Below are positions 5,156 to 45,902 of a DNA stretch of 64,000 nucleotides, piece after piece. Each line of letters starts with the position of its first letter. Positions within the stretch are counted from its first letter, which is position 1. Below the pieces are notes generated by a model, which worked only from the letters and a program-made list of their open reading frames with translations, did not search any database and had not been told where the DNA came from. Position numbers and translations under genes: made by a program. The DNA comes from an uncultured Phycisphaerales bacterium. GTDB lineage: Bacteria > Planctomycetota > Phycisphaerae > Phycisphaerales > UBA1924. The DNA lies in assembly GCA_965371965.1 (NCBI GenBank), contig CBDVAM010000002.1, forward strand, positions 1,617-65,616, given 5' to 3'.

Positions 5156-5239
5156 AAGCAAAGAGAAGACCGGAGCCCCATGGGCACCCGGCCTCCGGGT
5201 TTGAGTTTGCGCTGTCCGTTGCGACGGATCTACAACAAC

Positions 5240-6592
5240 TCAGCATCCGGTGACGAAGAGGTCGAGATACGCAAAGAAGTCGTCGGCGTCGATGTCGCCA
5301 TCGCCGTCGATATCTGCGGCGGGGTCGTCGGCGGCGAACAGATCGAGATAGGTGAAGAAGTCGTCGGCGTCGGCATCGCCGTCACCGTCGAGATCGGCAG
5401 CGCAGCCCAGAGCCGGATCGTCGTACCCGACGAGGTGGATGTCTCCACGCCCGGCGCCGAACGACCACGCCGTCCCGCCGACGACGATCTTGTCGGTGCC
5501 GACGGCCACGGACCATGCCCGGTCGTCGGATACACCCCCGTCAGTCTCGCTCCAGAGCTCGACGCCGTTGGCGTCTGTGCGGACGATGTACATGTCCGCG
5601 CCGCCCGCGCCGAACGAGCCGGTCATGCCTACGAAGATGAACCCGCCGTCGGGCATTACACGCACGCATTGGCCCTTGTCGTCGGCGCGCCCGTCTCCGA
5701 AGATCCGCGTCCAGATGGGCTCTCCCAGGTCATCGGTGCGAACGAGGGCCATATCGGAATCGCCCGACTGGTTCGCGAAACTCCCGGCGAGGACAAAGCC
5801 CCCGTCGGCGAGTTCGCGGATCGAACTCAGGGTGCTGGAGCCCCCGCCGTTGTTGTGCGTCTGGTCCCAGATCGCAACGCCGAGCTCATCTGTGCGGATC
5901 ACCCACCAATCCCAGATTGGGCCTTGCACGAACCCGCCGATGATGTACCCGCCGGTGGAGACCTCTTCAATCGCGAGCGCAACGTCCGAGCCTGCGTTGG
6001 GGCCATCGTCGTACTCGTAGGTTTGCGCCCATTGCTGGATGCCGTTTGCGTCGGTCTTGACCACATACATGTCGTAGCTGCCGAAGTCGCCGTCGAGGAA
6101 CCACGTCTGCCCGGCGATGATGAAGCCGCCGTCGGATGTGAGAGCCAGGGCGTGCGCTCTGCTGTCTCTGCCCGCGTCGTAGGTCCTCTCCCACAGCAGG
6201 CCGCCGTTGGCGTCTGTCCGGATGAGGAAGGCTCTGAATGAGCCGTTTCTCCCGGTCCTTCCGGCGATCGCGTACCCGCCACCGGGCAGCTCTTTGACAT
6301 CGGCCCCGTAGTTATGGAAGTCCGATAGGTTATCGAATGTCCGCGACCACTCCTGGTCGCCGTTGGCGTCGGTCTTCACGAGGTACACGGCTATGCCCGA
6401 GTTGGGTGAGAACGATCTGCTGAACCCGACGGCGATGTACCCGCCATCGCGCGTCGCCTCGATCGCGAATGCCCCGTCCTCGCTTTCGCCGCCATAATCG
6501 CGTGTGAAGAGAACGTCTTGGGCGCGTGCCCCCGGGGTGCCGCCCGCGACCAGCACCGCGGCGAAGACCATGAGTTTTCTCTGAGCGTGCAT
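5240..6592 (-). CDS. secreted beta-propeller repeat protein with Gly-Cys double-dockerin module (member B)
   Basis: ATG at 6592 with AAGGAG 7 nt upstream. Signal peptide MHAQRKLMVFAAVLVAGGTPGARAQ. Six to seven ~50-aa repeats (TDANGxxxW...DGGYIxxG). C-terminus GCAADLDGDGDADADDFFTYLDLFAADDPAADIDGDGDIDADDFFAYLDLFVTGC*. Confidence 0.85.
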   Translation of the reverse strand: MHAQRKLMVFAAVLVAGGTPGARAQDVLFTRDYGGESEDGAFAIEATRDGGYIAVGFSRSFSPNSGIAVYLVKTDANGDQEWSRTFDNLSDFHNYGADVKELPGGGYAIAGRTGRNGSFRAFLIRTDANGGLLWERTYDAGRDSRAHALALTSDGGFIIAGQTWFLDGDFGSYDMYVVKTDANGIQQWAQTYEYDDGPNAGSDVALAIEEVSTGGYIIGGFVQGPIWDWWVIRTDELGVAIWDQTHNNGGGSSTLSSIRELADGGFVLAGSFANQSGDSDMALVRTDDLGEPIWTRIFGDGRADDKGQCVRVMPDGGFIFVGMTGSFGAGGADMYIVRTDANGVELWSETDGGVSDDRAWSVAVGTDKIVVGGTAWSFGAGRGDIHLVGYDDPALGCAADLDGDGDADADDFFTYLDLFAADDPAADIDGDGDIDADDFFAYLDLFVTGC

Positions 6593-6641
6593 GATGATGC
6601 TCCTTGAGACTGTCGGGTGTGGACCCGGTGCCGGTCGCTTC

Positions 6642-8841: not shown

Positions 8842-8903
8842 GCGGACGAGTCACCTCGCCTCTCACGCCCGGGACCGGCTGCCACGGCCCCTCCCCTAGA
8901 AAA

Positions 8904-10994
8904 TCAGCAGCCCGCTGCAAACAGATCTAAATACCCAAAGAAATCGTCGGCGTCGATGTCGCCATCGCCATCGATGTCGGCGGCGGGATCGCGGGTGGCG
9001 AAGAGATCGAGATACGCGAAGAAGTCGTCGGCATCGATGTCGCCGTCGCCATCGAGGTCGGCGGGACACGGGGTCGCGGTGGAGATGATGCGGCCGCCCC
9101 ACCCGGCTGCCCAGAGGTCGCCCGAGGGCGAGGCGTCGAGCTGAGCCGGGTTGTAGGGGAACAGGGAGTCGCGGCTGCGGATCCAGGTCTGCCCGCCGTT
9201 GACGGTGTGGAGCGTGATCGGTTGGATCTGGCGATCGACCCCGACGACCCAGACCTCATTGGCGCTGATGACCGCGACACCCATGGCGACGCGGACCTCG
9301 TGGTTGTTGCCGAAGTCGAAGGTCTGCCATGTCCGCCCGCCGTCGAGTGTGCGTGCGGCGTAGTCCCACCATCCGACGGCCCAGCCGACGTTCTCGTCGA
9401 TGAACTGCATGTCCTGGATGGTGGGGTTGTCGCCGAAGTAGACGTCGGGCAGCGTGACGTCCTGCCATGTGTTGCCTCCGTCATCGGTGCGGTGCAGGAT
9501 GCCGCCGAGGCGCATGATCCAGCCCTTGTCCTCACCGATGAACTGGATGAGCTCGAAGGCTGCGCCGTCGAACGGGCGGAACCAGGTTTGCCCGCCGTTG
9601 AGCGTGCGGTAGATGGATTCTTGCGTTCTGAACATGTCTCGATTGGAACCGACGACCCAGATGTCGTCGGGGGTTCGTGCGGCGATATCCCTGATGTCGA
9701 GATCGACGGGCAGGCGTCCACCACTGCTGATGGGCATCCAGTTCTGCCCCGCGTCCACAGACTTGAACACCGTGCCGCCGGGACCGGCGATAAAGGCGTT
9801 CTGATCGTCGAGAATGTCAACAGCGTTGAGTGATTCGTCGAAGCCGAACTCCTGGCCCCGGATCTCCGGCTTCTGGACGGTCCAGTGGGTGCCCCCGTCG
9901 GTGGTCCGCATCACATAGGTATTGCGGGCGACGGCGATTCCATACCTGTCGGTGTGCATCTCGATGGCGGTGATATCCATGCCGATGCCGTTGGTGATGT
10001 ACTGCCAAGTCTGCCCCCCGTCGCTGGTGCGATAGATGATGCCGCGAGCGCCCGTGAGGATCCCGACCCCTGCGTCTGTGAAGTTGAGTTCCCAGGTGTA
10101 CGGCAGATCGCCGATGGCGTCGAGCGTCTTGGTCCAGGTGGTGCCGAGGTCGTGGGAGAGCCAGACATCGCCCTGGTGGGAGGCCCCGGCGATCGTAAAC
10201 TCGTCGACGAGCGCGAGATCGTTGAGTGGGCCGTCCTCCTCGAACTCCTGCGAGACCGCGGCCCAGGATTGCCCGCCATCGGTCGAGCGATAGACCTGCC
10301 CGGGCAGGACTCCCGTCGCCACCGCCGTGTTCTGATCGACGTACATGACGTCGTTGATGACCGCATCGAGGACGTGTGTCCAGGTTCGCCCACCATCGGT
10401 AGTCCTAAAAATCCCGTCCAGATCGTCGGGGATCTGATGGCCCGACACGAGACCGATCTCGGCGTCGATGAAGTCTGAGCCCCAGGCAATCGGGCAGTCG
10501 GGCCATCCCAAGCGCAGTTCCCAGGTCTGCCCGCCGTCGGTCGTGCCCGCGCAGGCGCCGTTGGCCATGAAGATGCCGTGGGTCGGGCTCTCGAAGTCGA
10601 TGAACCTCCACGAGCCCGCCATGCCAGGCATGGGCGTCCAGGTCTGGCCGCCATCGGTGGTGCGCAGGGCGTCGGAGTTGTTGCCGGTGACCCAGCCGTG
10701 GTTCTCGTCAATGAAGAAGACGTCGTAGTAGGGATTGGTGCTGTGAGCCTCGAGGTTGCGCTCGATCCAGGTCCGCCCGCCGTCGAATGTCTCGAAGAGC
10801 GCTCGGTTGCGGCCGACCATGAAGCCGTGCAGCGGTGTGGCGAACGCCACGCTGTTGAGGTCACGGTCTGTGGGAAGCACGCTCTGCCTGGTCCATTGTG
10901 GCTGTGCGTTTGCGAGGGAGGCAGCGCCAGCGATCGCAAGCAGCCAGGAGAACGCGAGAGTGTTCAGGGTTCGGCTTGTCCGTTGGGTCTTCAC
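8904..10994 (-). CDS. secreted BNR/Asp-box (sortilin/Ycf48-like) propeller protein with Gly-Cys double-dockerin module (member D)
   Basis: Many SxDxGxTW boxes (TDGGQTW, DGGRTW, TDGGTHW...). The GTG at 10994 has a strong SD (AGAGGAGGAG) and gives a clean signal peptide (KTQRTSRTLNTLAFSWLLAIAGAASLANA/Q). An alternative ATG lies at 11024. C-terminus PCPADLDGDGDIDADDFFAYLDLFATRDPAADIDGDGDIDADDFFGYLDLFAAGC*. Confidence 0.85.
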   Translation of the reverse strand: MKTQRTSRTLNTLAFSWLLAIAGAASLANAQPQWTRQSVLPTDRDLNSVAFATPLHGFMVGRNRALFETFDGGRTWIERNLEAHSTNPYYDVFFIDENHGWVTGNNSDALRTTDGGQTWTPMPGMAGSWRFIDFESPTHGIFMANGACAGTTDGGQTWELRLGWPDCPIAWGSDFIDAEIGLVSGHQIPDDLDGIFRTTDGGRTWTHVLDAVINDVMYVDQNTAVATGVLPGQVYRSTDGGQSWAAVSQEFEEDGPLNDLALVDEFTIAGASHQGDVWLSHDLGTTWTKTLDAIGDLPYTWELNFTDAGVGILTGARGIIYRTSDGGQTWQYITNGIGMDITAIEMHTDRYGIAVARNTYVMRTTDGGTHWTVQKPEIRGQEFGFDESLNAVDILDDQNAFIAGPGGTVFKSVDAGQNWMPISSGGRLPVDLDIRDIAARTPDDIWVVGSNRDMFRTQESIYRTLNGGQTWFRPFDGAAFELIQFIGEDKGWIMRLGGILHRTDDGGNTWQDVTLPDVYFGDNPTIQDMQFIDENVGWAVGWWDYAARTLDGGRTWQTFDFGNNHEVRVAMGVAVISANEVWVVGVDRQIQPITLHTVNGGQTWIRSRDSLFPYNPAQLDASPSGDLWAAGWGGRIISTATPCPADLDGDGDIDADDFFAYLDLFATRDPAADIDGDGDIDADDFFGYLDLFAAGC

Positions 10995-11228: not shown

Positions 11229-11357
11229 TTAACCTCTATCTGCAAAGAGGTCGAGGTATGCGAAGAAATCGTCGGCGTCGGTGTCGCCATCGGCAAGGGC
11301 CATTGGATCTGCGCCGACGATGACTGCTGCCAGAGCCCAACTCTTCTTACAGATCAT
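11229..11357 (-). CDS. 42-aa mini-ORF: signal-peptide-like N-terminus plus one dockerin repeat
   Basis: Hand-translated because it is below the ORF-track cutoff: MICKKSWALAAVIVGADPMALADGDTDADDFFAYLDLFADRG*. GGAGA lies 3-4 nt upstream of the ATG. It sits ~50 nt downstream of the sigma54 element at 11419-11433. It could be a functional peptide or a decayed family member. Confidence 0.4.
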   Translation of the reverse strand: MICKKSWALAAVIVGADPMALADGDTDADDFFAYLDLFADRG

Positions 11358-34685: not shown

Positions 34686-37049
34686 TCAACTCGCCTGCGA
34701 GGGGGCGATCCACCGCGTGTCGTCGAGCACGAGGTCGAGCCCCGCCGCCTGCTCGAAGTCAGACTTCACCTTCGCGAGCTTTCGGTAGAGCACGAGCATC
34801 AGCAGGACGCAGAACAGTGCGCCGAGTGCGACGCCGACAGCGGCGTAATACAGATGCTGTGACTCGATGGGCTCGCCGACTTCGACCGGCCCGGCGAGTT
34901 GGGCCGCGGCACTCGAGATTTGTGTGCCCCCGCTGCGATTCGCGGCGCTGACGACCGCTCTTGAATAGGTGTCCAGTACGCGTTCGGTCTCTCGCTTGCC
35001 GTCGCCTCGCAGCTCGAGCGTGATCTGATCGGCGCTGGTATCAAGAACCGCCAGGTCCTTCTCCAGTCGCAACGCGAGCGAGATCGGGTCGGACAGATCC
35101 TCGATGCCGCGATCGCCCATGCGGTTGGCGGCGCTGCTGATCACGCCCGGATCCAGGAGGATCTGCTGCGTGGCTTCTTTCCATACCCGCATCTGCTCAT
35201 CGGTCAGCGTTCGCCCGCTGACATGCGGCTCGATGCCGACGACCGCCGCGAACCGGGCGGGCGCGATCGAGCCGGCGCTGATCCACGCGAAGGACCCGAC
35301 GATCGCCAGGCTCAAGACCATGCAGATGAGGCCGATGCCGGCCTTTGCGCCGGCCTGGCGCTGGTGGAGCCTCTTGTCCATCGCCCGCAGCCGATGGGTG
35401 GCCTGGACGACCTCGCCGCGCTGCTTGATGAGCGCCTCGGCTTCTTCCATGCGCCGAATGAGTGCGCCGCTTGCGGTCTTGAACTTCCTGGCCCGATCCT
35501 TGAGCATCCGCTTGGCGATGCGCAGGCGGTCTCGGCGCGTCTCGGTAAAGTCATCGGAGCGGGCGATCGTGACGATCTCGGGCTCTGGCGAGGCGTTCGA
35601 ATCTTCGCGGGCCTGCTCCAACTCGCGGCGAGTCTGTTCGAGTTCCGACCGCAGGTCCTCGACCTCCGGCGGCCCTTGCTCAGACTCAAGGCGCAGGCGC
35701 TGGTTTTCCTTGGCGAAGTTCTCCAGGTCGGCCTGGGTCCGATCGCGCTGTTCGACGAGTTCCTTGATCCGCTCGGCGACCTCTTCGTCGATGCCGCCCT
35801 CGCCCTGAGCCGCGTCCAGACGCTGCTCGAAGTCGTTCGCCTTGGCCTCGGCGACCCGCTCGCGAGCCACGGACTGCGCGAGGGCCTCTTCGAGCATGCC
35901 GCACTGGCTCTGCTGGCGAGTGATCTGCTCGCGCGACTCGCCCAGCTCTCTCTCCATACTCTCGGTGGCGGACTGGGCCTCGCCCAGGCCATCGCGAGCG
36001 ACCTTGTATTCACCGGCCACGGTCCGCAGCTCTTCGGTGCGGGTCTGGAGTTCGATCATCGCGTCATCGAGCTTGGCCTTTGCGGTGTCGATCTCGGCGC
36101 GGAGCGACTGACGCTCCTTTTCGATCAACTCTTGAGCCTCTGACGCGGCTCCATCCAGGCGCTGGCGGGCCTCCTGGATTTCGACCTTCAGGGCCTCGAT
36201 CTGATCGGATCCCTCGCGGTTGGCCGTGACCAGCGCCTCGCGGGTGCCGTCCAGCTCGACTCGCAGCTGATCGGCCTGCTCGCCGGCGGCGGCCTCGGCC
36301 TGTTCCAGGCGAGACTGCAACTGGGAGAGCGTGTTCTGGAGATCGGCCTGAGAGGCTTGGGCCTGTTTGAGCTCGCCCTGACGCGCGCCTAGAGCCTCCT
36401 CGCGAGAGTGGATGTCGGACTCAAGAGTCTGGATCCGGTGTTCGAGCTTCTGAATCCTGCTCTGGGCGTCGTCGCGAGCGCCGTCGCGGTCGTTGCGTGC
36501 GGACTTGGATTCCCGCTTGAGATTCTCGCGTTCCTTGTGGAGCACGTCGATCTGGTCGCGCAGCGACTGGCCCTCGGCACGCCAGGATTCCTCGCGCGCC
36601 TCGCGGTCTTGCTGGCGCTGGGCCGCGAGGTCGTGGGCGGTCCGCAGGTCCTCGCGAGCCCCGGCGTGCTCCTCGGTGAGGCGCTGGAACTTGGAGCGGG
36701 CGTCCTTGAGGTCGTGCTCGAGGTCGGCGGCGCGGGTCTGGGCCGCGGAGTGCTCGCGCTCGCGGTTGGAAGCATCGCGTTCCAGTTGGGCGACCTTCTG
36801 GCGGGCCTCATCGAGTTCGTGCTGGCGGTCCTTGAGCGTGGCGGCACGCGACTCGAACTCGCGTTCCTTCTCGCTGATCGAGTCCGCGAGTTCCTTGAGG
36901 CGGGCCGACTCACGCCGACGGGCCTCGTGGGCCTCCTTGAGCGTCTTGAGCTGGCTCTCGACGTCGGCGAGGAGCGCGACGACATCTTCGCGGGACTTGG
37001 GTGCCGCGGACGAGCCAACGCTTCCTTGGGGCGGGTTGCCTGATCCCAT
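34686..37049 (-). CDS. large coiled-coil protein (~560 aa of heptads) with C-terminal TM / Wzz-like loop / TM
   Basis: E/R/A/Q/L-rich heptad sequence throughout the N-terminal two thirds. TM helix GIGLICMVLSLAIVGSFAWI, a ~190-aa loop, then TM helix YYAAVGVALGALFCVLLMLVLY. Start taken at ATG 37049. Confidence 0.7.
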   Translation of the reverse strand: MGSGNPPQGSVGSSAAPKSREDVVALLADVESQLKTLKEAHEARRRESARLKELADSISEKEREFESRAATLKDRQHELDEARQKVAQLERDASNREREHSAAQTRAADLEHDLKDARSKFQRLTEEHAGAREDLRTAHDLAAQRQQDREAREESWRAEGQSLRDQIDVLHKERENLKRESKSARNDRDGARDDAQSRIQKLEHRIQTLESDIHSREEALGARQGELKQAQASQADLQNTLSQLQSRLEQAEAAAGEQADQLRVELDGTREALVTANREGSDQIEALKVEIQEARQRLDGAASEAQELIEKERQSLRAEIDTAKAKLDDAMIELQTRTEELRTVAGEYKVARDGLGEAQSATESMERELGESREQITRQQSQCGMLEEALAQSVARERVAEAKANDFEQRLDAAQGEGGIDEEVAERIKELVEQRDRTQADLENFAKENQRLRLESEQGPPEVEDLRSELEQTRRELEQAREDSNASPEPEIVTIARSDDFTETRRDRLRIAKRMLKDRARKFKTASGALIRRMEEAEALIKQRGEVVQATHRLRAMDKRLHQRQAGAKAGIGLICMVLSLAIVGSFAWISAGSIAPARFAAVVGIEPHVSGRTLTDEQMRVWKEATQQILLDPGVISSAANRMGDRGIEDLSDPISLALRLEKDLAVLDTSADQITLELRGDGKRETERVLDTYSRAVVSAANRSGGTQISSAAAQLAGPVEVGEPIESQHLYYAAVGVALGALFCVLLMLVLYRKLAKVKSDFEQAAGLDLVLDDTRWIAPSQAS

Positions 37050-37280
37050 CTGCGAGGCCACTCCGATCGCCCGGGGCAAATGGCCCGGTCCCGCGGATAT
37101 CGGCAGGACCCCAGGGCGTCTGAACCGATGCGGACGCTTGCCCTGCTTTGCTCGCCCGCACATCCGGTCGCCGGCAACCTTCTGGGACCCTTAGGGGAAT
37201 ACTGGTACGCGTGGGCGGGTTGCTGTACGCTGACAGACAACCAGACGCGGGGCTCAGAGCCCCATATTCAGGAGTCTTCC

Positions 37281-37739
37281 ATGTTGAAGCGTCACGGATT
37301 TGGTGTGAGTGGGGCAATCGGCGCGGTTATCGCGCTTGGCGTCACCGGGGTCGTCGGCTACTCGATGGTCTCGGGTCAGTGCCTCCTGGGCGGATGCGAC
37401 GCCGGCAAGGCGAGCTCGGCGGCGGCATTGGCGACGGCGACGGTCGTCAGCGCCGACGAGAGCTCCACCTGCTCCACGGGCGGGGGCGAACTGGCAGACA
37501 GCGGGTTGATCCTCGCCAGTGATGCCACCACAGACGAGGGCTTCGTGGCCTGCGAGGGCGGCCCGGAGAACGCCATTGCGTGCGAGTCGTCTTGCCAGAG
37601 CGACGTGCCGGCCACCATCGACGGCGGGGAATCGAATCTCACCGTGGTCCACGCGGAGACCGAGGGCGAGTGCTCGGCGGCGGGCGCGTGCTCCGAGGCA
37701 TCCAAGAGTGCGTGCCAGAACGAGAAGCCCCTCGAATAG
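37281..37739 (+). CDS. small membrane-anchored Cys-rich protein (152 aa, 11 Cys)
   Basis: AGGAG lies 6 nt upstream of the ATG at 37281. TM helix GAIGAVIALGVTGVVGYSMV. Cys-rich, acidic ectodomain. Confidence 0.55.
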   Translation: MLKRHGFGVSGAIGAVIALGVTGVVGYSMVSGQCLLGGCDAGKASSAAALATATVVSADESSTCSTGGGELADSGLILASDATTDEGFVACEGGPENAIACESSCQSDVPATIDGGESNLTVVHAETEGECSAAGACSEASKSACQNEKPLE

Positions 37740-37848
37740 GGCTGGTTGACCGACGGACAAGTTCGAGCAGCAAGAGCCCCCCACTTCGGGGGGTTCTTCT
37801 ATAGGACAAGCGGTGAGGCTCAATGCACCGGCGACTTACACTGGCGTG

Positions 37849-38277
37849 ATGGCAACATTTCTCTTCAAGACAGAGCCGGGCGATTACTCCTGGGACGACC
37901 TCGTGCGCGACAAACGCACCGAATGGGACGGAATCACCAACCCCGCGGCGCTGAAGCACCTGCGGGCGGCGCGCAAGGGCGATGAGGCGTTCATCTATCA
38001 CACCGGCGATGAGCGACGCATCGTGGGCCTGGCGAGCATCGTCAAGGGCCCCTACCCAGACCCCGCACGCCCGGAGAACACCAAGGCCGGGGACACCAAG
38101 TTTCCGCTCGTGGATATAAAGGCGTTGCGGGCGGTGCAGACGCCGGTGACGTTGGGCGAGATCAAGGCTGATGCGCGGTTCGAGGGGTTTGTGTTGTTGC
38201 GGGAGTCGAGGCTGAGTGTGGTGCCGGTGCCTGCGGAGATGGATAAGGCGATACGGAAGATGGCGGGGCTTTCCTAA
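37849..38277 (+). CDS. EVE (PUA-like, DUF55) domain protein
   Basis: MATFLFKTEPGDYSWDDL...WDGITNPAALKHLRAARKGDEAFIYHTG...IVGLASIVK is a typical EVE domain. Confidence 0.85.
   Translation: MATFLFKTEPGDYSWDDLVRDKRTEWDGITNPAALKHLRAARKGDEAFIYHTGDERRIVGLASIVKGPYPDPARPENTKAGDTKFPLVDIKALRAVQTPVTLGEIKADARFEGFVLLRESRLSVVPVPAEMDKAIRKMAGLS
38081..38277 (+). repeat. direct repeat, left copy (3' ~200 bp of the EVE gene)
   Basis: Roughly 90% identical by eye to 42585..42784, e.g. GACACCAAGTTTCCGCT.GTGGATAT.AAGGCGTTGCGGGC.GTGCAGACGCCGGTGACG. Confidence 0.85.
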
Positions 38278-38297
38278 GCTGGCCCGCACGGCAGGGG

Positions 38298-38326
38298 TTG
38301 CACCCAGTCGGCAAAGTGTGTATATT
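38298..38326 (+). promoter_or_regulatory. sigma70-like promoter TTGCAC-N17-TATATT
   Basis: -35 TTGCAC (38298-38303) and -10 TATATT (38321-38326) with a 17-nt spacer. About 35 nt upstream of the SD/ATG at 38348/38361. Confidence 0.5.
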
Positions 38327-38399
38327 CGGACTTGGCCACAACGGCCAAAGGAGATCTCCGATGGAACGGATTGAACGATTGAACGATGGAGCAGTTCGA

Positions 38400-38415
38400 G
38401 GGGGGGGGGGGGGGG
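38400..38415 (+). repeat. G16 homopolymer inside the 5' end of a coding region
   Basis: 16 consecutive G counted (38400-38415). Lies between the SD-preceded ATG 38361 and the long ORF beginning at 38432. Confidence 0.9.
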
Positions 38416-38431
38416 TAAAACCCTGGTTCTC

Positions 38432-39742
38432 GTGAGCCTTGCCCTGCTGACGGCGACGCTTGCCACAGGCGCGGCGAGCGCGCAGGAAATCGTCCCAACC
38501 TTCCAAGATCCTGTGGTCTTTGACACGGGTAGCTACCCCTACGGGCTGGCGGCGGCGGACCTGATCGGCGACGACGGGCTGCCGGAGATCGTGGTCGCAA
38601 ACGGCGCTTACAACGCGTTCGATTGTATCGAAGACGGGACGACCGGCACGATCTCGGTCTTTCGCAACACCGGAAACTGGGATCCCGGCCCCGGTGCCGG
38701 ACTCGTGCTCGAACAAACGATCGACATCTGCGACGACTGTGTGCCGGCGGAGATCGTCGTCGCCGACATCGACATGATGGATGGACCCGATCTGGTCATC
38801 AGCGCCGCGGGCGTGAACGACCCGGGCATTTATGTCTGCTACAACGATGGCACGGGGAACTTCGCTCGGATCGAGTACTTCGAGACGCCGCTGCCCGTGC
38901 GCGGGCTTGTCGCTCGCGACGTTGATAACGACGGCTGGATCGATGTCGCAGCGGGCGTCGACTACTGCGACCGGGTTCTCGACACCGACAAGGTGTACTT
39001 CCTGTTCAACGATGCCACCGGCTCCGGCTTATTCGAGCCTGAGATTCTCGAGGTGGACCTCGGCACGGATGAGCGCCTGCCGGGGTGCGACATCGTGGCG
39101 GCGGACTTCTTCCGGCTCGCGCTGGGCCCGCCGATCGTAGACGTCGTCAGCGCCAACATGTGGGACGACTCGTTCACAGAGATCCGCAATCTCGGTAATC
39201 GCCAGTTGAATCCGCACACGACCGAGAGCGGCGGCTGTGGAGACGTGAGTTGGGAGTTCGAGACGATCACTGCAGGGCGGTTCGACAGCAACTCCTTCGA
39301 CGATTTCGCCGTCACCGAGTTTAGGGCCGACTTCGTGGACATCTTCCTCGGCAACGGGGCGGGCGGCTACACGTCCTACTGCGACAACCCCGACCTGCGG
39401 ATGGCGACAGGCGGGACCTTCTGCTGGGGCGTGGAAAACGGACACCTCAACGGACCGGCGAACAAGACCGACCTCGCCGCGGCGCTCGTTCTCAGCAACC
39501 AGGTCTCGGTCATGCTGGGCAGGGGCGACGGCACGTTTCAGACGTTCGAGGACGACGACAGCCAACTGGTGAGCGTCGAGCCCCCGGGCGGCCCTCTCTT
39601 TGAAGCCGATGGCACCATCATGGTCATCGTGGCAGACATGGACCAGGACGGCTTCGGCGACATCGTGACGACCAATCACTTCTCCGACAACATCAGTGTC
39701 CTGATCAACGAGCTCAAGATCGTGCCGGGCCAGGGATCCTGA
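38432..39742 (+). CDS. secreted FG-GAP/VCBS-type propeller protein (no dockerin module); 5' end apparently frameshifted at the G16 tract
   Basis: FG-GAP-like blades (AAADLIGDDGLPEIVVANG, VVADIDMMDGPDLVISAAG, VARDVDNDGWIDVAAG, IVADMDQDGFGDIVTTN). The ORF as sequenced opens at a GTG with no SD. ATG 38361 has a perfect AAGGAG 7 nt upstream but is in another frame (see findings). Confidence 0.75.
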   Translation: MSLALLTATLATGAASAQEIVPTFQDPVVFDTGSYPYGLAAADLIGDDGLPEIVVANGAYNAFDCIEDGTTGTISVFRNTGNWDPGPGAGLVLEQTIDICDDCVPAEIVVADIDMMDGPDLVISAAGVNDPGIYVCYNDGTGNFARIEYFETPLPVRGLVARDVDNDGWIDVAAGVDYCDRVLDTDKVYFLFNDATGSGLFEPEILEVDLGTDERLPGCDIVAADFFRLALGPPIVDVVSANMWDDSFTEIRNLGNRQLNPHTTESGGCGDVSWEFETITAGRFDSNSFDDFAVTEFRADFVDIFLGNGAGGYTSYCDNPDLRMATGGTFCWGVENGHLNGPANKTDLAAALVLSNQVSVMLGRGDGTFQTFEDDDSQLVSVEPPGGPLFEADGTIMVIVADMDQDGFGDIVTTNHFSDNISVLINELKIVPGQGS

Positions 39743-39759
39743 CCGATGGGAGTGCAGCG

Positions 39760-41034
39760 ATGATCCGGCGATGCGGAAACAGATGCAGGGGCACGCTGCG
39801 CATCAGGTTGCTTGTGCTGGCGGTGGGCGTTCTCGCGATCGCGGGATCGCCCGCCCCGGCGCAGGACGATGAGCCCCACTTCATCAGGCTCGGGCATTTC
39901 CCCGACGGGCTCTCTGCCAGTGGCGCGAACGATATCTCGCCGGAGGGCTCGGTCGTCGTCGGCTCCGCCCCGCATGCCGGCTTTGGCGACTTCGAGGCCT
40001 TCCGGTGGACCGAGCAAACGGGATTGGTCGGCCTGGGCAGGCTGGTTGCATGGGGCATCTCAAAGGCGCGGGCGACATCGTCGGACGGCGAGGTCGTCGT
40101 CGGGTGGTCGCACTCCGCGCAGGGTCCCGAGGCATTCCGCTGGACCGAGCAGACGGGCATGGTCGGGCTCGGGGACCTGCCCGGCGGGAAGTTCAACTCC
40201 ATGGCGTTCGGCGTCTCGTGGGACGGACGGGTCATCGTCGGGCACGGACGTTCGCCAGACCTCGAGGCCTACAGGTGGACGCCCGAGGAAGGCATGGTTG
40301 GACTTGGGGACCTGCCCGGCGGGAGCGTTTGGAGCGCGGCGATCGCCGTTTCTGCCGACGGCTCGGTCATCGCCGGGCACAGCAGTTCCGCCAACGGCCG
40401 CGAAGCGTTCCGCTGGACGCCCGAGGAAGGCATGGTTGCCCTGGACCAATCCGATGACTGGTCAAGTACGGCCGTATACGGCATTTCAGCGGATGGTCGA
40501 ACCGTGGTCGGGTTTGGGTTTTTTCGCGGCGAACGTTCAGAGGCGTTCCGCTGGACGCGGGCAACGGGCTTTGAGGGGCTCGGCGACCTGCCCGGCGGGC
40601 GGTTCCAGAGCACCGCAAGGGCCACCAACGCCAACGGCTCGATCGTCGTCGGCGAGAGCATCACCGAGACCGGCAACCAGCCGTTCATTTGGACCAAACG
40701 CCACGGCCTGCGCAACCTACGCGACCTGATCGTCGACGGACTCGGTCTGGATGTCGAAGACATGGAACTCAAGTACGCCAGCGCCGTCTCCGCCGACGGG
40801 CGATGGATCACCGGCGGCGCCTGGACCGACGACGGCTCGGAGGGATGGGTGGTGTATCTGGGCCCGGGCTGCCCCGCCGACTTCGACGGAGACGCCGACA
40901 CCGACGCGGAGGACTTCTTCCTCTACCTCGATCTCTTCGCCGCGGGCGACATGCGCGCCGACATCGACGACGACGGCGACATCGACCAGGACGACTTCTT
41001 CGGGTACCTGGATCTGTTCAGCGCGGGCTGTTAG
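39760..41034 (+). CDS. secreted HAF-family extracellular repeat protein with Gly-Cys double-dockerin module (member F)
   Basis: Six to seven ~45-aa repeats (EAFRWTxxxGMVGLGDLPGGxxxSxAxxVSADGSVIxG), matching the HAF repeat pattern as I recall it. C-terminus GCPADFDGDADTDAEDFFLYLDLFAAGDMRADIDDDGDIDQDDFFGYLDLFSAGC*. Confidence 0.8.
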   Translation: MIRRCGNRCRGTLRIRLLVLAVGVLAIAGSPAPAQDDEPHFIRLGHFPDGLSASGANDISPEGSVVVGSAPHAGFGDFEAFRWTEQTGLVGLGRLVAWGISKARATSSDGEVVVGWSHSAQGPEAFRWTEQTGMVGLGDLPGGKFNSMAFGVSWDGRVIVGHGRSPDLEAYRWTPEEGMVGLGDLPGGSVWSAAIAVSADGSVIAGHSSSANGREAFRWTPEEGMVALDQSDDWSSTAVYGISADGRTVVGFGFFRGERSEAFRWTRATGFEGLGDLPGGRFQSTARATNANGSIVVGESITETGNQPFIWTKRHGLRNLRDLIVDGLGLDVEDMELKYASAVSADGRWITGGAWTDDGSEGWVVYLGPGCPADFDGDADTDAEDFFLYLDLFAAGDMRADIDDDGDIDQDDFFGYLDLFSAGC

Positions 41035-41083
41035 CGAAGCGGTGGGCGGGCGGAGACGGCCCTGACCAAAAGGAGGCGGCGAC

Positions 41084-42556
41084 ATGTTTCAGCGTGGAAG
41101 CCAGCGAAGAACGAGGCGAAGAATCTCGCGGAGCGGGATCGGAGCGCCGTGCATGGGTCCGACGCGGAGCATCTGCGTGTCCGTTGCGGTGGCCGCCCTC
41201 GTGGCGGCGGGCGCGCAGGCACAGCAGCTCGCAAAGTTCACACCGGAGGACGGCGTGAGATGGGGAGACTTTGGCAGCAGCGTCTCGATCAGCGGGTTCA
41301 CGGTGGTCGTTGGGTCTCGGAACGGGCGTGCAGCGGGGCTTGCCAGCGGTTTCGCGTCCGTGTACCGAGCATTGGGCGGAGACTGGCGGCAGATCGCCCT
41401 GATCACCGCTGACGACGCCGCACGCGGCGATGAGTTCGGCTTCAGCGTCTCGATCAGCGGGGACACCATGATCGCCGGGTCGATTCATGACAACGAGCAA
41501 GGAGACGGGAACCGCCACACAGGCCGTGGAGCGGCGTACATCTTCCGCGAGATCGATGGGCTGTGGCGGCAGGTCGCCAAGCTCAGCGCCGATGACGGCG
41601 AGGCCCGCGACAGTTTCGGCACCAGCGTCTCGATCAGTGGTGATACGGCCGTCGTTGGAGCCCCTTTCGACAGCGATGCGGGCAGGTTGAGCGGCTCAGC
41701 GTACGTCTTTCGGGAGGAGGATGGGCTGTGGCGGCAGGTCGCCAAACTCACCGCCGACGACGCCGAGGCCGGCGATTGGTTCGGTACCAGCGTCTCGATC
41801 AGCGGGGACACGGTGGTCGTCGGGGCTCACAGAGACAACGGCGCGGGCGGGAACAGCGGCTCGGCGTATGTCTTCCGCGAGGTAGATGGACTGTGGGGGC
41901 AGATCGCCAAACTCACCGCCGACGACGCCGAGGCATCGGACCATTTCGGCATCAGCGTCTCGATCGGCGGTGATACGGCGGTGGTCGGGATTCGCAGAGA
42001 TCAGCAGGGGGATCCCGACAGCGGATCGGCGTATGTCTTCCGCGAGGTTGACGGGGTGTGGCGACAAATCGACCAGCTTCGGCCCGACGATGGGATGCCT
42101 CACGACCACTTTGGCACCAGCGTGTCGATCGATAGAAACGCCATTGTCGTCGGTGCCTCGGGAAGCGATGGCGCGGGCCTGAACAGCGGCTCGGCGTATT
42201 TGTTCCGCGAGTTCGATGGCGTGTGGGAGCAGGTTGAGAGAGTCTTCCCGCAGGACGGCCAGTCCTCCGATTTGTTCGGCGAGAGTATCGCGATCAGCGG
42301 TGATGTGGCTGCGATCGGAGCTAGTGGTGACGACGATGAGGGTCCGCTCACGGGTTCGGCATACGTCTTCTGGGTCGGGTCGAGCTGCCCGGCCGATTTG
42401 GATGGAGACGCCGACGCCGATGCCGACGACTTTTTCGCCTACCTCGACGCCTTCGTCGCCGGCAACCTCGACGTCTGCGACATCGACAATGACGGCGACT
42501 GCGACGCCGAGGACTTCTTGGGCTTTCTGAACCTGTTTGCTTCGGGGTGTCCGTGA
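41084..42556 (+). CDS. secreted FG-GAP repeat protein (8 blades) with Gly-Cys-Pro double-dockerin module (member G)
   Basis: AAAGGAGG lies 7 nt upstream of the ATG at 41084. Repeats DxFGxSVSISGDTxVVGA...GSAYVFRExDGxWxQ. C-terminus SCPADLDGDADADADDFFAYLDAFVAGNLDVCDIDNDGDCDAEDFLGFLNLFASGCP*. Confidence 0.85.
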   Translation: MFQRGSQRRTRRRISRSGIGAPCMGPTRSICVSVAVAALVAAGAQAQQLAKFTPEDGVRWGDFGSSVSISGFTVVVGSRNGRAAGLASGFASVYRALGGDWRQIALITADDAARGDEFGFSVSISGDTMIAGSIHDNEQGDGNRHTGRGAAYIFREIDGLWRQVAKLSADDGEARDSFGTSVSISGDTAVVGAPFDSDAGRLSGSAYVFREEDGLWRQVAKLTADDAEAGDWFGTSVSISGDTVVVGAHRDNGAGGNSGSAYVFREVDGLWGQIAKLTADDAEASDHFGISVSIGGDTAVVGIRRDQQGDPDSGSAYVFREVDGVWRQIDQLRPDDGMPHDHFGTSVSIDRNAIVVGASGSDGAGLNSGSAYLFREFDGVWEQVERVFPQDGQSSDLFGESIAISGDVAAIGASGDDDEGPLTGSAYVFWVGSSCPADLDGDADADADDFFAYLDAFVAGNLDVCDIDNDGDCDAEDFLGFLNLFASGCP

Positions 42557-42580
42557 ACTTATCCGCCCCTGCGCCCCGAG

Positions 42581-42784
42581 TTGCCCAAGGCGGGCGACAC
42601 CAAGTTTCCGCTGGTGGATATCAAGGCGTTGCGGGCCGTGCAGACGCCGGTGACGCTAGCGGAGATCAAGGCAGATGCGCGGTTCGAGGGGTTTGTGTTG
42701 TTGCGGGAGGCGAGGCTGAGCGTGGTGCCGGTGGCGGGGGAGATGGATCGGGTGCTGCGGCGGAGGCGGGGTTGTAGCGGCTAG
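42581..42784 (+). pseudogene. displaced 3' fragment of an EVE-domain gene (right direct repeat 42585..42784)
   Basis: Encodes ...KAGDTKFPLVDIKALRAVQTPVTLAEIKADARFEGFVLLREARLSVVPVAGEMD..., which is near-identical to residues ~80-140 of the intact EVE protein at 37849..38277. It has no N-terminal half. Confidence 0.8.
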
Positions 42785-42791
42785 CCCGGGA

Positions 42792-43541
42792 CTACTCATC
42801 CTCTGATGGCTCTGCAATGGCATCGCCTACACGGACGAACTGGCCCCCCTCTTCGCTCTCCCAGAGCCGATCGTCGTCGGCGTATCGCCCGAAGAACTGG
42901 ATGAGCCGGTCGATCGAGCTGGTATATGAAAAACCGAGACTGTCTGATCCCTTGGCTTGCTCATACAGCTCCAGCAACTCGTCGAGATCGATCGGGTTCG
43001 GGTCAACCTCGCGCGGGGCATCAAGCGATCGGAGCTGCGGCATCCAGAAGATCGGCACTGCGGGTTGTGTGAGCGTGACGCGGTCGGCGTCACGCTCGAG
43101 CTTCACGACCATGTGAACGGGCAGCGCGAGTCCGGCCTTGGCGAGTTGCGAGAGCGTGGGCTGAAGAGACAGGAATCGGGCCCCCCCGGCCTTGAAGACG
43201 TAGGCGTTGAAAATGATCGGGCCGCGGAACTCCTCGTCATCGATGGGAATGGCGACGGTGTAGACATCGACAAGCTCGTCGTCGGAGGGTTTGGTGGCGA
43301 AAAAGCCCTTCCCCTCGACGTCCCGGATTGGATCGACTCGATCGCCCTCGAAGGCCATCTTCCGCCTGGAAACAACGATTCCCGCTTGTTTCGCCTGATC
43401 CACCTCGCGCCACTCGCCGAGCAATCCTTCGTCCCAGACGAGCGAGGCTGTGGGATAGGCCGGATCGAGCGTCGTCTCGGTGCATGCCGAGAGACCACAT
43501 CCGACGGCGACCGCCACGAGTGCGAGTATGAGCCTGGTCAT
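42792..43541 (-). CDS. lipoprotein, function unknown
   Basis: MTRLILALVAVAVGCGLSAC lipobox. 249-aa ORF with no recognised domain. Confidence 0.65.
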   Translation of the reverse strand: MTRLILALVAVAVGCGLSACTETTLDPAYPTASLVWDEGLLGEWREVDQAKQAGIVVSRRKMAFEGDRVDPIRDVEGKGFFATKPSDDELVDVYTVAIPIDDEEFRGPIIFNAYVFKAGGARFLSLQPTLSQLAKAGLALPVHMVVKLERDADRVTLTQPAVPIFWMPQLRSLDAPREVDPNPIDLDELLELYEQAKGSDSLGFSYTSSIDRLIQFFGRYADDDRLWESEEGGQFVRVGDAIAEPSEDE

Positions 43542-43600
43542 CCGGTGCTCCTTGAGATTGCACGCCGATCAGGTCTTTAGGGTCTTCGGCCCCGTTTCGT

Positions 43601-44152
43601 TCAACCCGCCCTCTCGATCGCCGCGGATCGGAGATAGTCTGACAGGCCCCGGAAGCCGTCGCGTCTGGCGGCTTCTTCGAGTCGGAGCTTCTCCTCGGCG
43701 GTGAGGCGGATGTTGACCTGCTGGTCGCGCTTGCCCTCGCGCGCGGCACTCGGTGGCGTATCGCCCATTTCAAGGATTGTGGCGACCGCGGCGGTTGTTG
43801 CTTCGAGCACGTTCTTTGCGCAGGCACTGATCGTCTTGCCGCCACCCATGACCAGCGGAAGCTCGACGGTGCTGCCGAAGTAGCCTTCGTCCTGGTCTTC
43901 TTCTATGACGAGGCGGTATGCCTTGGCGATCCTCTCAGCTCGCCGCAGGATGTCTTTATCGAACGGGCGGCTGAGGTGTTTGCGCTCGGCGGCGGTCAGG
44001 CCGTCAGCGGAGCGGGATGGCGAGGCGCTTTTCGAGGCGGCGGATGTACCCCGGCCCGACCCGCCCTTTGTGGACCGGGACCGAGATGTGGTCTTCGCCT
44101 TCTTTGACGAAGATGTGGTGCGATCCCGAGATTCTGTCGAGCGTCCAGCCAT
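43601..44152 (-). CDS. hicB: HicB-family antitoxin with C-terminal RHH (CopG-like) domain; true start uncertain
   Basis: YRLVIEEDQDEGYFGSTVELPLVMGGGKTISACAKNVLEATTAAVATILEMGDTPP (HicB fold) plus QVNIRLTAEEKLRLEEAARRDGFRGLSDYLR (RHH). The only ATG (44152) overlaps hicA by 149 nt, and the overlapping part is low-complexity S/T/R/K. The real start is probably near 43999. Confidence 0.7.
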   Translation of the reverse strand: MAGRSTESRDRTTSSSKKAKTTSRSRSTKGGSGRGTSAASKSASPSRSADGLTAAERKHLSRPFDKDILRRAERIAKAYRLVIEEDQDEGYFGSTVELPLVMGGGKTISACAKNVLEATTAAVATILEMGDTPPSAAREGKRDQQVNIRLTAEEKLRLEEAARRDGFRGLSDYLRSAAIERAG

Positions 44153-44201
44153 GTTCCTCTAGTCGGCGCTTTAGCGCGGCAAATCGAACCTCTGACGGCA
44201 T
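44004..44201 (-). CDS. hicA: HicA-family mRNA interferase toxin
   Basis: MPSEVRFAALKRRLEEHGWTLDRISGSHHIFVKEGEDHISVPVHKGRVGPGYIRRLEKRL (65 aa). GGAG lies 7 nt upstream of the ATG at 44201. Confidence 0.8.
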   Translation of the reverse strand: MPSEVRFAALKRRLEEHGWTLDRISGSHHIFVKEGEDHISVPVHKGRVGPGYIRRLEKRLAIPLR

Positions 44202-44469
44202 TGTGCAGCTCCAGAAGTGAAACTGGATTCCAGCGATGGCGTCTGCGCGGCACGACCGCGACATCGCCATATCTGGCAAACCGAATCACCTCAGGAGCGT
44301 GCTGCCCGGCGCGAATGGCTTATGGATCGCCAGCAAGCCCTGAGAACATATGTGCCTAACACTCGTGCGCTACCGATGACCAGCCGGGTCGACCGTATCG
44401 GTGGAAACTACTGTTACTGTCTCGGAGCCAGTATAGCAAAGCGTATACGAAAAATCAAGTCCAATTCGA

Positions 44470-45603
44470 CTAACGAATCAAAGAGATGATCGAAGCCACG
44501 CTCGCCTTCGCCCGCTCGCCTTCGATCCCCGTCAGCGCATTCGCCTGCACGTCCGCGTGGTAGCTGGACCGCACCAGCGGCCCGGATTCGACGACCTTGA
44601 ACCCTCGATTCAACCCCTCCTCGCGGTACATCTCGAAGGTGTCGGGGTGGACCCAGCGGTGGATGGGCAGGTGGTTGCGGGTGGGCTGGAGGTATTGGCC
44701 GATGGTGAGAATGTCGCAGGCGTCTGGGGTCGGGGTGAGGGTCTGGGGTCTGGGGTCTGGGGTCTGGGGTTGGGAGGGGGAGCGCTTCGTTGCCTCGATC
44801 ACCTCGTCTAACAATCTCAACACCTCGGAATCCTTTTCGCCGATGCCGACCATGATGCCGGTCTTGGCGACGCAGCCCTGCTCCTTGACCCGGCGGAGCA
44901 GTTCCAGGCTTCGGTCGAACTTGGCGCTGGGACGCACGGCGGGGTACATCCGGCGGACGGTCTCGAGGTTGTGATTGATAATGTGCGGCTGGGCGTCGAT
45001 CACCATCTGCAAGGCACCCCAATCGCCCTTGAAGTCGGGAATCAGGACTTCGATCGACATCTCCGGGCAGGCTTCGCGGGTGCGGATGATGGTCTCGGCC
45101 CAGATGCCGGCCCCGCCGTCGCTGAGGTCGTCGCGGTCGACACTGGTGATGACGACGTGCTTGAGGCCCATGAGGGCGAGGGTGCCGGCGACGCGCCGGG
45201 GCTCGTCGCGGTCGGGAGGCGCGGGCCTGCCGGTCTTGATGTTGCAGAACCCGCACGAGCGGGTGCAGGTGTCACCCAGGATCATGATGGTGGCGATGCC
45301 GCGAGCCCAGCACTCGCCCATGTTGGGGCAGCCCGCCTCTCGACAGACTGTGTGGAGCCCGTGGTCGGCGAGTCGATTGCGTAGTTTTTCGTATTCCGGG
45401 CCCCCAGGGAGCTTTGCCTTGAGCCACTTTGGCTTGCGCTTGAAAAGGGCGTGCTCGGGGCCGCGGTGGTTATTGAGGACCATGCCCGAGAGGCTGTGGA
45501 GGCTGCCCAGGTCTCTGCGGAGGGGATCGCCTCCCAGAGGGCGCGGATGGCGCACGTTAGGAGGATTTTTCAGGCTACTTGCTGGGCGGACGGGCGGGCT
45601 CAT
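44470..45603 (-). CDS. lipA: lipoyl synthase, with ~20-aa Pro/Thr/Asp/Gln-rich insertion
   Basis: Radical-SAM CTRSCGFC and auxiliary-cluster CREAGCPNMGEC motifs, plus ITSVDRDD, NHNLETV, TIGQYLQPT and RSSYHAD. The start is uncertain: ATG 45603 or 45483, and the ORF extends to 45888. Confidence 0.9.
   Translation of the reverse strand: MSPPVRPASSLKNPPNVRHPRPLGGDPLRRDLGSLHSLSGMVLNNHRGPEHALFKRKPKWLKAKLPGGPEYEKLRNRLADHGLHTVCREAGCPNMGECWARGIATIMILGDTCTRSCGFCNIKTGRPAPPDRDEPRRVAGTLALMGLKHVVITSVDRDDLSDGGAGIWAETIIRTREACPEMSIEVLIPDFKGDWGALQMVIDAQPHIINHNLETVRRMYPAVRPSAKFDRSLELLRRVKEQGCVAKTGIMVGIGEKDSEVLRLLDEVIEATKRSPSQPQTPDPRPQTLTPTPDACDILTIGQYLQPTRNHLPIHRWVHPDTFEMYREEGLNRGFKVVESGPLVRSSYHADVQANALTGIEGERAKASVASIISLIR
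44742..44769. repeat. heptanucleotide tandem repeat (TCTGGGG)x4 = (CCCCAGA)x4 on the coding strand, inside lipA
   Basis: Four perfect copies read directly at 44742-44769, with degenerate copies flanking (44722-44741 and 44770-44776). Encodes PQTPDPRPQT. Confidence 0.9.
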
Positions 45604-45902
45604 GGCAGACTGTAGTCGGTTGGACGGAGCGTCTAAGTTCTCTGAGATGGAATCGCCGCTGTTCATTGGCGTGCGATCCTGCCGATTGAGTCCGAGAAGG
45701 TTCTGGGCGCGAACCCGCGTGGGTTTCGGCTCGTCTGATGGTCTCGATTGACTGTCGCGATGGACGCGATAGGTTTGGTCTGACGGACCGATATTTGGTG
45801 CGTTCGCGGGTTGGGATGGATGGGGGCGGGGTGAGAGCCGAAGACCGTTTTCGGGCGTGTATCGTGCGGCGAGCAGCCCCATGAGCAAAAGAGGAGCTCG
45901 GC

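Follow-up and report, generated by a model that had tools for sequence, protein, structure and literature searches.

A displaced 3′ end of an EVE-domain gene behind a three-gene dockerin-associated block in an uncultured Phycisphaerales bacterium, most likely a scar of ordinary recombination

A stretch of 64,000 nucleotides from an uncultured Phycisphaerales bacterium (GenBank assembly GCA_965371965.1, contig CBDVAM010000002.1, positions 1,617 to 65,616 of the forward strand; hereafter the window, numbered from its first letter) carries an intact gene for an EVE-domain protein, a block of three genes for FG-GAP, HAF-repeat and dockerin proteins and, directly after the block, a second copy of the 3′ end of the EVE gene. 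The initial annotation of this DNA had taken the arrangement for the product of site-specific integration of a mobile dockerin cassette. Our analysis suggests that it is most likely an ordinary recombination scar between two versions of a variable chromosomal spot rather than a jumping cassette. More specifically, we give roughly even chances to the reading that the repeat records one event of general host recombination or repair, which joined two alternative configurations of the interval between EVE and the lipoyl synthase gene lipA and displaced the old 3′ end of EVE.

The EVE gene (37849-38277, plus strand; ATG at 37849, stop at 38275-38277) codes for 142 amino acids (aa) matching the Pfam family PF01878 (E 3e-35) and has syntenic orthologues in about 80 Phycisphaerales loci. 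Repeat finding, MAFFT and BLASTN revealed a single direct repeat in the window, which links the final ~70 codons of this intact gene (left copy, 38068-38268, plus strand) to a copy downstream (right copy, 42572-42771, plus strand) over 201 aligned nucleotides (nt) with one 1-nt gap, 86% identity and an E value of ~1e-63. The repeat-finding pass alone returned a two-copy family of 200 nt (38068-38267 and 42572-42771), and fainter homology extends the repeat leftwards to 38060 and 42560 across a 3-nt gap. The direct repeat annotated initially at 38081-38277 and 42585-42784, at about 90% identity, is therefore real, with its coordinates and identity revised to the values given here. It occurs twice in the window and, in a self-BLAST of all 64 kb, is the only repeat that is not explained by a protein-repeat or dockerin module.

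The two copies differ in structure. The left one completes the EVE open reading frame (ORF) and is contiguous with the leader and the block genes that follow it. The right one has a stop codon and lacks the 5′ half of the gene, as the initial annotation had recognized: Pfam matches only positions 89-137 of the EVE profile (E 3.6e-8), and the EVE-like bases begin at 42560-42572, i.e., 3-15 nt past the TGA (42554-42556) of the third block gene. Two indels distinguish the right copy from the left. It stays in frame up to '...EMD', after which a 1-nt deletion near 42766 breaks the frame, bypasses the ancestral TAG (42775-42777) and leads to the next one, at 42782-42784.

The sequence beyond the right copy is consistent with its being the native, orphaned 3′ end of EVE. 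It is followed by a convergent gene (42792-43541, minus strand) for a lipoprotein-like protein of 249 aa with no family match, here called lipo249, whose homologues lie beside EVE in four relatives (loci L020, L057, L087 and L169) and reach ~87-88% nt identity in L167 and L168. A homologue search with lipo249 gave four short contigs. L168 is 87.8% identical to window positions 42751-43912 and carries hicB, lipo249, the same 14-nt spacer and an EVE tail ending in ...ALRKMAGL-TAG. In this tail, the orthologue of the window fragment, the 1-nt deletion is absent, and tail and spacer match the window nearly base for base. In L169, lipo249 (65% aa identity) is convergent with an intact EVE C-terminus (residues 80-141), which is 82% identical to the window EVE protein. 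The same junction, with EVE convergent and 0-30 nt from the lipo249 orthologue, is found in L168, L169, L020 and L057, and EVE is also convergent with a lipo249 homologue in L087. The shared junction thus indicates that the right copy is the native EVE tail in its ancestral place, and lipo249 appears from its position in these relatives to be the ancestral downstream neighbor of EVE. The initial proposal of a replacement 3′ end with a displaced original accordingly stands, with the left copy as the replacement.

A genome scan with EVE recovered ~80 loci, almost all of them from metagenome-assembled genomes (MAGs) of Phycisphaerales, and we compared them with the window proteins by TBLASTN. A conserved frame borders the interval on the left (a PPIase, two unknown genes, a long coiled-coil protein and EVE) and on the right (sometimes hicBA, then lipA, a Wza-like gene and an exosortase gene). 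lipA (44470-45888, minus strand; Radical_SAM and LIAS_N matches) is the conserved right-hand anchor, retained in synteny with EVE in relatives. The interval in between ranges from 68 bp (L006) to ~5 kb and holds HD-domain, PPK2-like and membrane proteins. Two of its configurations concern us here. In the widespread layout that we designated type B, and which is probably the older form, EVE is convergent with the lipoprotein-like gene, followed by hicBA and lipA. In type A, EVE is followed by a conserved leader with a promoter-like element and a poly-G tract, an FG-GAP gene, a HAF-dockerin gene and then lipA.

Type A is seen in L161-L164, four assemblies of one species (including WFPB01000036) that were found through homologues of the first block gene. 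Their order is EVE, a leader of ~165 nt (about 150-180), an FG-GAP gene (62-63% aa identity), a HAF-dockerin gene (61%) and, at once, lipA. Although their contigs extend to lipA, they have no third block gene, second EVE fragment, lipo249 or hicAB. The same order is found in L165 (EVE 74%, FG-GAP gene 70-71%, HAF gene 65%), whose contig stops within the HAF gene, and L166 has EVE, the leader and the FG-GAP gene (65%). Both configurations therefore occur in relatives, type A in L161-L166 and type B in L020, L057, L087, L169 and probably L168. The block proteins are 61-71% identical to those of relatives and the proteins of the flanking genes 56-77% (L161). This equal divergence, together with the shared synteny, makes the block look resident rather than mobile. 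Set against these loci, the window appears to be a hybrid in which a type A left half meets a type B right half near EVE codon 70, and the incoming material would be everything from ~38060 to 42556.

In the favored explanation, DNA bearing an EVE 3′ end, the leader and the FG-GAP, HAF-dockerin and FG-GAP-dockerin genes would have been joined into the type B chromosome of a related lineage. This could have happened by homologous exchange in or upstream of EVE combined with one illegitimate join that connected the end of the last block gene, just past its stop, to EVE near codon 70. A single Campbell-type crossover of a circular intermediate bearing the EVE tail would give the same product. By either route, the incoming 3′ end would preserve the gene, while the resident 3′ end would be moved 4.5 kb downstream as a promoterless, start-less orphan, whose two indels would mark a tail already in decay. 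We infer the direction of the event (which half was the recipient), its timing and its exact pathway from the product. The longest run of perfect identity between the copies is 36 nt (38170-38205), within a 138-nt tract at 93% and ~215 nt of graded homology. Runs of 36 nt are sufficient for occasional RecA-type recombination. Homologous recombination between the copies could thus delete the block and restore type B.

The identity between the copies is mosaic. It falls to 67% at the left end (38060-38091; 20 of 30 positions, including the 3-nt gap) and to 68% at the right end (38230-38274; 30 of 44, including the 1-nt deletion), and it reaches 93% in the center (38092-38229; 128 of 138). The contrast between center and ends is strong (Fisher p = 6e-6) and is absent from orthologue pairs (p ~1), which rules out protein constraint as its explanation. 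The mosaic implies that the ancestry of the center is much more recent than that of the ends. Either a crossover near 38230, with everything to its left derived from the recipient in both copies, or a later gene conversion fits this pattern. Each copy is closest to the other, and neither is appreciably nearer than its partner to L169 (81% and 80%) or L165 (74% and 74%). An attempt to trace one of them to type A and the other to type B was uninformative, since both are equidistant from all orthologues. For scale, the EVE genes of the window and of its close relative OFTM8 differ by a dS of 0.73, and the flanks are ~75% identical in nucleotides.

Between a gene and a partial pseudogene copy close to it, gene conversion leads to concerted evolution of direct repeats, and the central 93% tract between ends of 67-68%, in copies 4.5 kb apart, resembles this outcome. 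This leads to an alternative that we consider rather unlikely, in which the block entered EVE once, in an ancestor of the type A clade, and the orphan has since been maintained by conversion. In genomes of the L161 type, one deletion would then have removed everything from the third block gene to hicBA, including the fragment and lipo249, and type B relatives such as L169 would have arisen by repeat-mediated excision. Indeed, a single 3.4-kb deletion (41035-44470) converts the window to the L161/L163 layout, where the HAF stop is 21 nt from the lipA stop. The repeat ends, at 67-68%, are as diverged as the orthologues of the window and L165 or L161, which together with the 93% center gives the classic look of a conversion tract, and contig breaks inside the tract in the two closest genomes (OFTM8 and OFTM188, described below) suggest near-identical copies there too. 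However, even outside the center the copies are mutually closest and show equal distances to orthologues of both types, and an untranslated fragment should be far more decayed since the split of the window and L161 lineages, whose EVE genes are only 57-62% identical in nucleotides here. Furthermore, the center has 8 synonymous and 2 non-synonymous differences (dS 0.26, dN 0.02), unlike neutral drift after conversion, and a surrogate 3′ end would still have needed a source at the first insertion. Conversion alone also leaves the origin of the partial copy unexplained, and the synonymous bias is not its simple expectation. Over the 60 codons of the repeat, dN/dS is 0.30, with too few sites to separate the models.

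We also considered site-specific integration, the mechanism proposed at the outset. Integrase-driven islands and prophages target the 3′ ends of tRNA, tmRNA and protein genes and supply a surrogate 3′ end. By analogy, an island or cassette carrying a mimic of the EVE 3′ end as attP would have inserted at about EVE codon 70, leaving the repeats as attL and attR, with its tyrosine or serine recombinase encoded elsewhere and acting in trans or since lost. The expected layout is present: a surrogate 3′ end, cargo and a displaced 3′ end in its native context, with the two ends forming direct repeats. The cargo ends 3 nt past a stop codon, the contigs of two relatives stop at the same position in EVE, a 3′ fragment of lipA borders a block in L167 in a comparable way (see below), and an FG-GAP/HAF pair occupies a different locus in another lineage. 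Against this, Pfam and NCBIfam scans of the sizeable ORFs of the 64 kb found no recombinase, transposase or excisionase, as the initial annotation had also reported for integrases, transposases and excisionases, and no integrase-like ORF was noticed by eye in the EVE-lipA interval of 16 relatives. ARAGORN predicted no tRNA or tmRNA in the window and Rfam gave no match at 37000-45000, which excludes an att site in a tRNA or other RNA gene. The repeat itself looks more like a graded homology of ~215 nt around a 138-nt tract at 93% than like a short exact core.

The cargo is also found where the repeats are not. The outcome that the initial annotation itself had said would speak against integration, relatives that share the arrangement with no repeat, is largely what L161-L164, L165 and L166 show: the first two block genes (L161-L165) or the first (L166) directly follow an uninterrupted EVE, diverged like their flanks, and the loci that extend to lipA (L161-L164) have no second EVE fragment. 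No second EVE fragment was detected within 10 kb on either side of EVE at E <= 0.1 in 80 genome loci, and no flanking repeats of at least 40 nt surround the block in L171, L163 or L165, where the matches are internal protein-repeat units only. A comparison of composition, which had been suggested as a check for a foreign cassette, brought out no supporting difference. The block has a GC content of 0.62-0.69 around a window mean of 0.64, and its three genes rank 40th, 23rd and 15th in codon usage among 45 genes (1 being the least typical); lipo249 (8th) and hicA (5th) are slightly less typical. IMG/VR scans returned no viral relatives of the EVE, FG-GAP or HAF proteins. Taken with the resident block in relatives, these results do not bear out the integration of a mobile dockerin cassette, which we now regard as unlikely.

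Other mobile-element scenarios were examined and rejected. As a target-site duplication of a transposon or insertion sequence, a repeat of ~200 nt at 86% would be excessive in both length and divergence, no transposase was found, and terminal inverted repeats are absent from 38270-38430 and 42500-42570. Like an integron cassette, the block looks promoterless, is tightly bounded at gene ends and lies beside a fixed chromosomal site. However, it has its own conserved promoter-like leader, there is no IntI, attI or attC-like imperfect inverted repeat, no structured inverted repeat follows any block gene, and Rfam gave no match. The inverted repeats that were found are short and weak.

The search for an unoccupied site, also suggested initially, had a mixed outcome. 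Empty sites or sites with other content between EVE and lipA are present in L006 and L020, and none came from a near relative: in a metagenome scan with EVE, the nearest relative was only 65% identical. Exact-sequence look-ups found neither the EVE nor the lipo249 protein of the window on record. A homologue search with the 74-aa fragment scored 21 candidates and returned 16 distant EVE proteins. One short candidate (P0013) that had seemed to be an EVE fragment proved to be a full gene interrupted by a scaffold gap of Ns and not an orphan.

It is highly improbable that the structure is an artefact in which two strains were assembled into one chimeric contig through EVE, or that the right copy belongs to a longer second EVE gene. 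The sequence is evidently derived from a metagenome, and related assemblies break in this region. However, 14% differing positions and two indels do not fit a collapsed or duplicated assembly path, and no k-mer common to the intact gene and the junction of the block-gene stop with EVE codon 70 could account for a false join. An independent EVE paralogue was likewise rejected: there is no 5′ half, and nothing EVE-like precedes 42560, where the third block gene, an uninterrupted ORF of 490 aa, has its dockerin end.

The contigs of the two closest genomes, OFTM8 (L002:10001-10320; EVE 92% aa identity) and OFTM188 (L005:4975-5289; 83%), stop inside EVE at the equivalents of window positions 38166 and 38161, within 5 nt of each other and inside the 93% tract. 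The breaks point to a repeat or a strain polymorphism in the same spot there, one of several hints that the locus is rearranged recurrently. A further boundary was noticed in L167 (940-1039; Logan ERR10503232; ~87% nt identity), a sister of L168 from the same study, which we compared with window positions 42792-43736 and 44677-44727. It departs from the window exactly at the lipo249 stop. Within ~40 nt of that stop it carries lipA codons ~385-404 on the same strand, entered by an ATG-initiated ORF. These codons correspond to a naturally variable loop of LipA. L167 may thus contain another gene 3′ end displaced to the edge of a block, as read from 88 nt of one short contig. Both observations lend some support to the favored explanation.

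From these boundaries one can sketch a broader process, to which we assign a low probability. The 3′ segments of the two anchor genes, starting near codon 70 in EVE and near codon 385 in lipA, would serve as reusable homology handles that shuttle gene blocks with no dedicated recombinase. The EVE handle would carry the FG-GAP/HAF/dockerin block and the lipA handle the hicAB-lipoprotein block. After circularization with a gene tail, a block would enter by a single homologous crossover and exit through the direct repeats. If so, the related Phycisphaerales would share a recurrent, site-preferring, integrase-free cassette system, and the window, the lipA-fragment junction of L167 and the OFTM8 and OFTM188 breaks would be separate instances of one process.

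Several observations weigh against the favored explanation of a single scar of host recombination. The join lies 3 nt past a stop codon and that of L167 right at a stop, neat edges as would be expected from a cassette-type mechanism, although selection could give equally neat ones where convergent genes are spaced by 20 nt, as in this genome. Two or three genomes (the window, possibly OFTM8 and OFTM188) seem to break at the same position in EVE, which would fit a recurrent, site-preferring process. The synonymous bias in the center of the repeat is unlike the neutral decay of an orphan (rough binomial p ~0.01) and points to a more complex history than one event would give. The third block gene was seen in no type A relative, and what supports types A and B in the closest relatives is drawn from contigs that are all short or truncated. 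What is visible of the event is its product junction (42554-42572), and the crossover and any microhomology at the illegitimate join are putative. Furthermore, homology-facilitated illegitimate recombination is experimentally rare (PMC5361080 and its references).

This type of recombination has been invoked for Rhs and type VI secretion system (T6SS) loci, where 3′ ends are displaced and orphan fragments are left behind (Kirchberger et al., 2017, PMC5361080, among whose references are Jackson et al., 2009, PMC2935791, and de Vries and Wackernagel, 2002, PMC122324). The window shares a defining feature of 3′-end displacement, an intact gene and a downstream orphan without its 5′ part that still lies beside the original neighbors of the gene. 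As at Rhs, CdiA and T6SS loci, the intact gene has a new 3′ end and new downstream genes, its conserved 5′ part would provide a homologous anchor, the start-less old 3′ end remains joined to its old neighbors, no integrase is present and alternative alleles occur in related genomes. Unlike in those systems, the gene codes for an EVE/PUA-like protein of 142 aa, not a polymorphic toxin, and has no variable C-terminal toxin domain. The cargo consists of three secreted FG-GAP/HAF/dockerin proteins with no immunity gene, there is one orphan and no array, and there is no sign of selection for swapping 3′ ends at the window EVE. Integrase-driven islands share the surrogate 3′ end, the cargo and the displaced native end; the window differs from them in its lack of an integrase, an excisionase and a compositional signature and in having its cargo in relatives without repeats, and its repeat, with homology graded over 200 nt around a center at 93%, does not look like a short exact core. 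We therefore regard the window as a further instance of an already described type of scar, in an unusual gene and an under-studied phylum, and not as a new type of element. It shows the remodeling of a variable chromosomal spot in an uncultured planctomycete lineage, in which a housekeeping-type gene was saved by a replacement 3′ end and its old tail was left as a datable scar. The case also cautions against over-calling, since cargo between direct repeats of a gene 3′ end is insufficient for calling a mobile element. Moreover, the scar predicts a reversible state, in which the three-gene block of surface proteins could be lost through the repeats.

The three genes between the copies have the identities initially assigned to them, as supported by Pfam, TIGR02913 and NF041540 matches. 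The first (38432-39742, plus strand) codes for a secreted protein of the FG-GAP_3/VCBS-like type (PF13517) without a dockerin, and its orthologues (62-71%) directly follow EVE in L161-L166. These coordinates run from the first canonical start; the actual start may be upstream, across a run of G residues. The second (39760-41034, plus strand) codes for a HAF-repeat protein (TIGR02913, E 1e-36) with a C-terminal GC-type dockerin and has orthologues (61-65%) in L161-L165. The third (41084-42556, plus strand) has seven FG-GAP_2 repeats (PF14312, E 8e-118) and a C-terminal GC-type dockerin, and was not found in the complete related loci L161-L164. NCBIfam NF041540 (GC-type dockerin domain-anchored proteins) has a curated cut-off of 29 bits, which the second (46 bits) and third (41.5 bits) block genes exceed; the first has no match.

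The HAF gene varies among assemblies of one species that have an identical FG-GAP protein, a further hint of recurrent rearrangement here: it is full length in L163 (9465-10772; 422 aa), split or frameshifted in L161 (11299-12606) and represented by its last ~80 codons in L164 (11299-11795). The 135-nt HAF repeats may drive such deletions. In the third block gene, positions 41270-42358 are built of 165-nt tandem units (FG-GAP_2, seven Pfam stretches) with 64-86% DNA identity, an ordinary repeat-protein architecture. The coding ends of the GC-type dockerins (~160 nt) are also similar in DNA, at 73-85% mutual identity, in six genes of the window (3708-3873, 5239-5407, 6641-6809, 8901-9068, 40866-41041 and 42381-42549), and there is an additional short match at 11242-11295. 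Scattered patches of this kind could be substrates for recombination.

The initial suggestion that members of the dockerin family move as cassettes finds partial support at another locus. In L171-L175 (e.g., L171:8001-10739; also L172:14090-14662), an FG-GAP/HAF-dockerin pair (45% and 40% aa identity) lies between topA and miaA, in a MAG that is also the source of L004. The presence of the pair at this site in a more distant relative indicates that a conserved two-gene unit has been relocated at least once. No recombinase is present at the topA-miaA pair, nor is a flanking repeat. A few kb downstream are another dockerin protein and an FG-GAP_2 protein. The three types of protein thus keep company at this second locus as well.

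The leader between EVE and the FG-GAP gene can be aligned over all four lineages (the window, L165, L161 and L166), with TTGCA-N17-TAxxxT, AGGAG-ATG and a G-run kept in each. It contains the promoter-like element noted initially (TTGCAC-N17-TATATT, 38297-38325, plus strand), whose columns are conserved in the alignment with L165, L161 and L166; a strict consensus scan did not call it. Conservation is consistent with a putative promoter function. Farther downstream (38349-38415, plus strand), the sequence AAGGAG-N7-ATG (ATG at 38361) precedes a homopolymer of 16 G residues (38400-38415), which is conserved in position and variable in length among relatives. The regions compared (window 38349-38435; L165 ~590-700; L161 ~9900-10000; L163 ~8070-8170; L166 ~450-560) have G16 in the window, G11 in L165, G9 in L161 and L164, G8 in L163 (same species, identical protein) and G11 followed by AGG in L166. 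The position of the run is thus kept among lineages in which the first block protein is only 62-71% identical. The ATG of the AGGAG-N7-ATG element upstream does not share the reading frame of the first block gene in any of the assemblies; in the window, a run of G17 or G14 would be required to bring the two in frame. The reading frame of that gene is open across the G-run and encodes a good signal peptide. The tract is a candidate switch, by phase variation or transcriptional slippage, for the FG-GAP/HAF/dockerin operon. As a possible switch for dockerin-associated surface proteins, it may be the more interesting biological lead.

A hicAB toxin-antitoxin pair had been placed just beyond the right repeat; lipo249 intervenes, and the pair, in the order hicBA, follows at 43601-44279. 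The toxin gene hicA (44004-44279, minus strand) matches HicA_toxin (PF07927) with 47 bits against a cut-off of 27. In the Pfam and NCBIfam scans, the partner ORF (43601-44152, minus strand; start tentative) has no HicB family match and a single ribbon-helix-helix (NikA-like) match of 33 bits, and we labeled it a HicB-like antitoxin because of gene order and conservation with L004, L007 and L026. The pair also adjoins lipA in these three loci and in L067. The longest hicB-like ORF codes for 183 aa with an N-terminus rich in Ser, Lys and Arg and overlaps the hicA ORF by ~150 nt. Both the overlap and the N-terminal extension are kept in L004 (12066-12678) at 73-77% aa identity, while EVE and lipA there are only 64-66% identical. 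Finally, lipA contains at ~44735-44790 (minus strand) an in-frame run of CCCCAGA-like heptamers that encodes ...SPSQPQTPDPRPQTLTPTPD... directly before the conserved CDILTIGQYLQP motif. The site is a loop of variable length in relatives, and the insert of L040 is longer still and unrelated.

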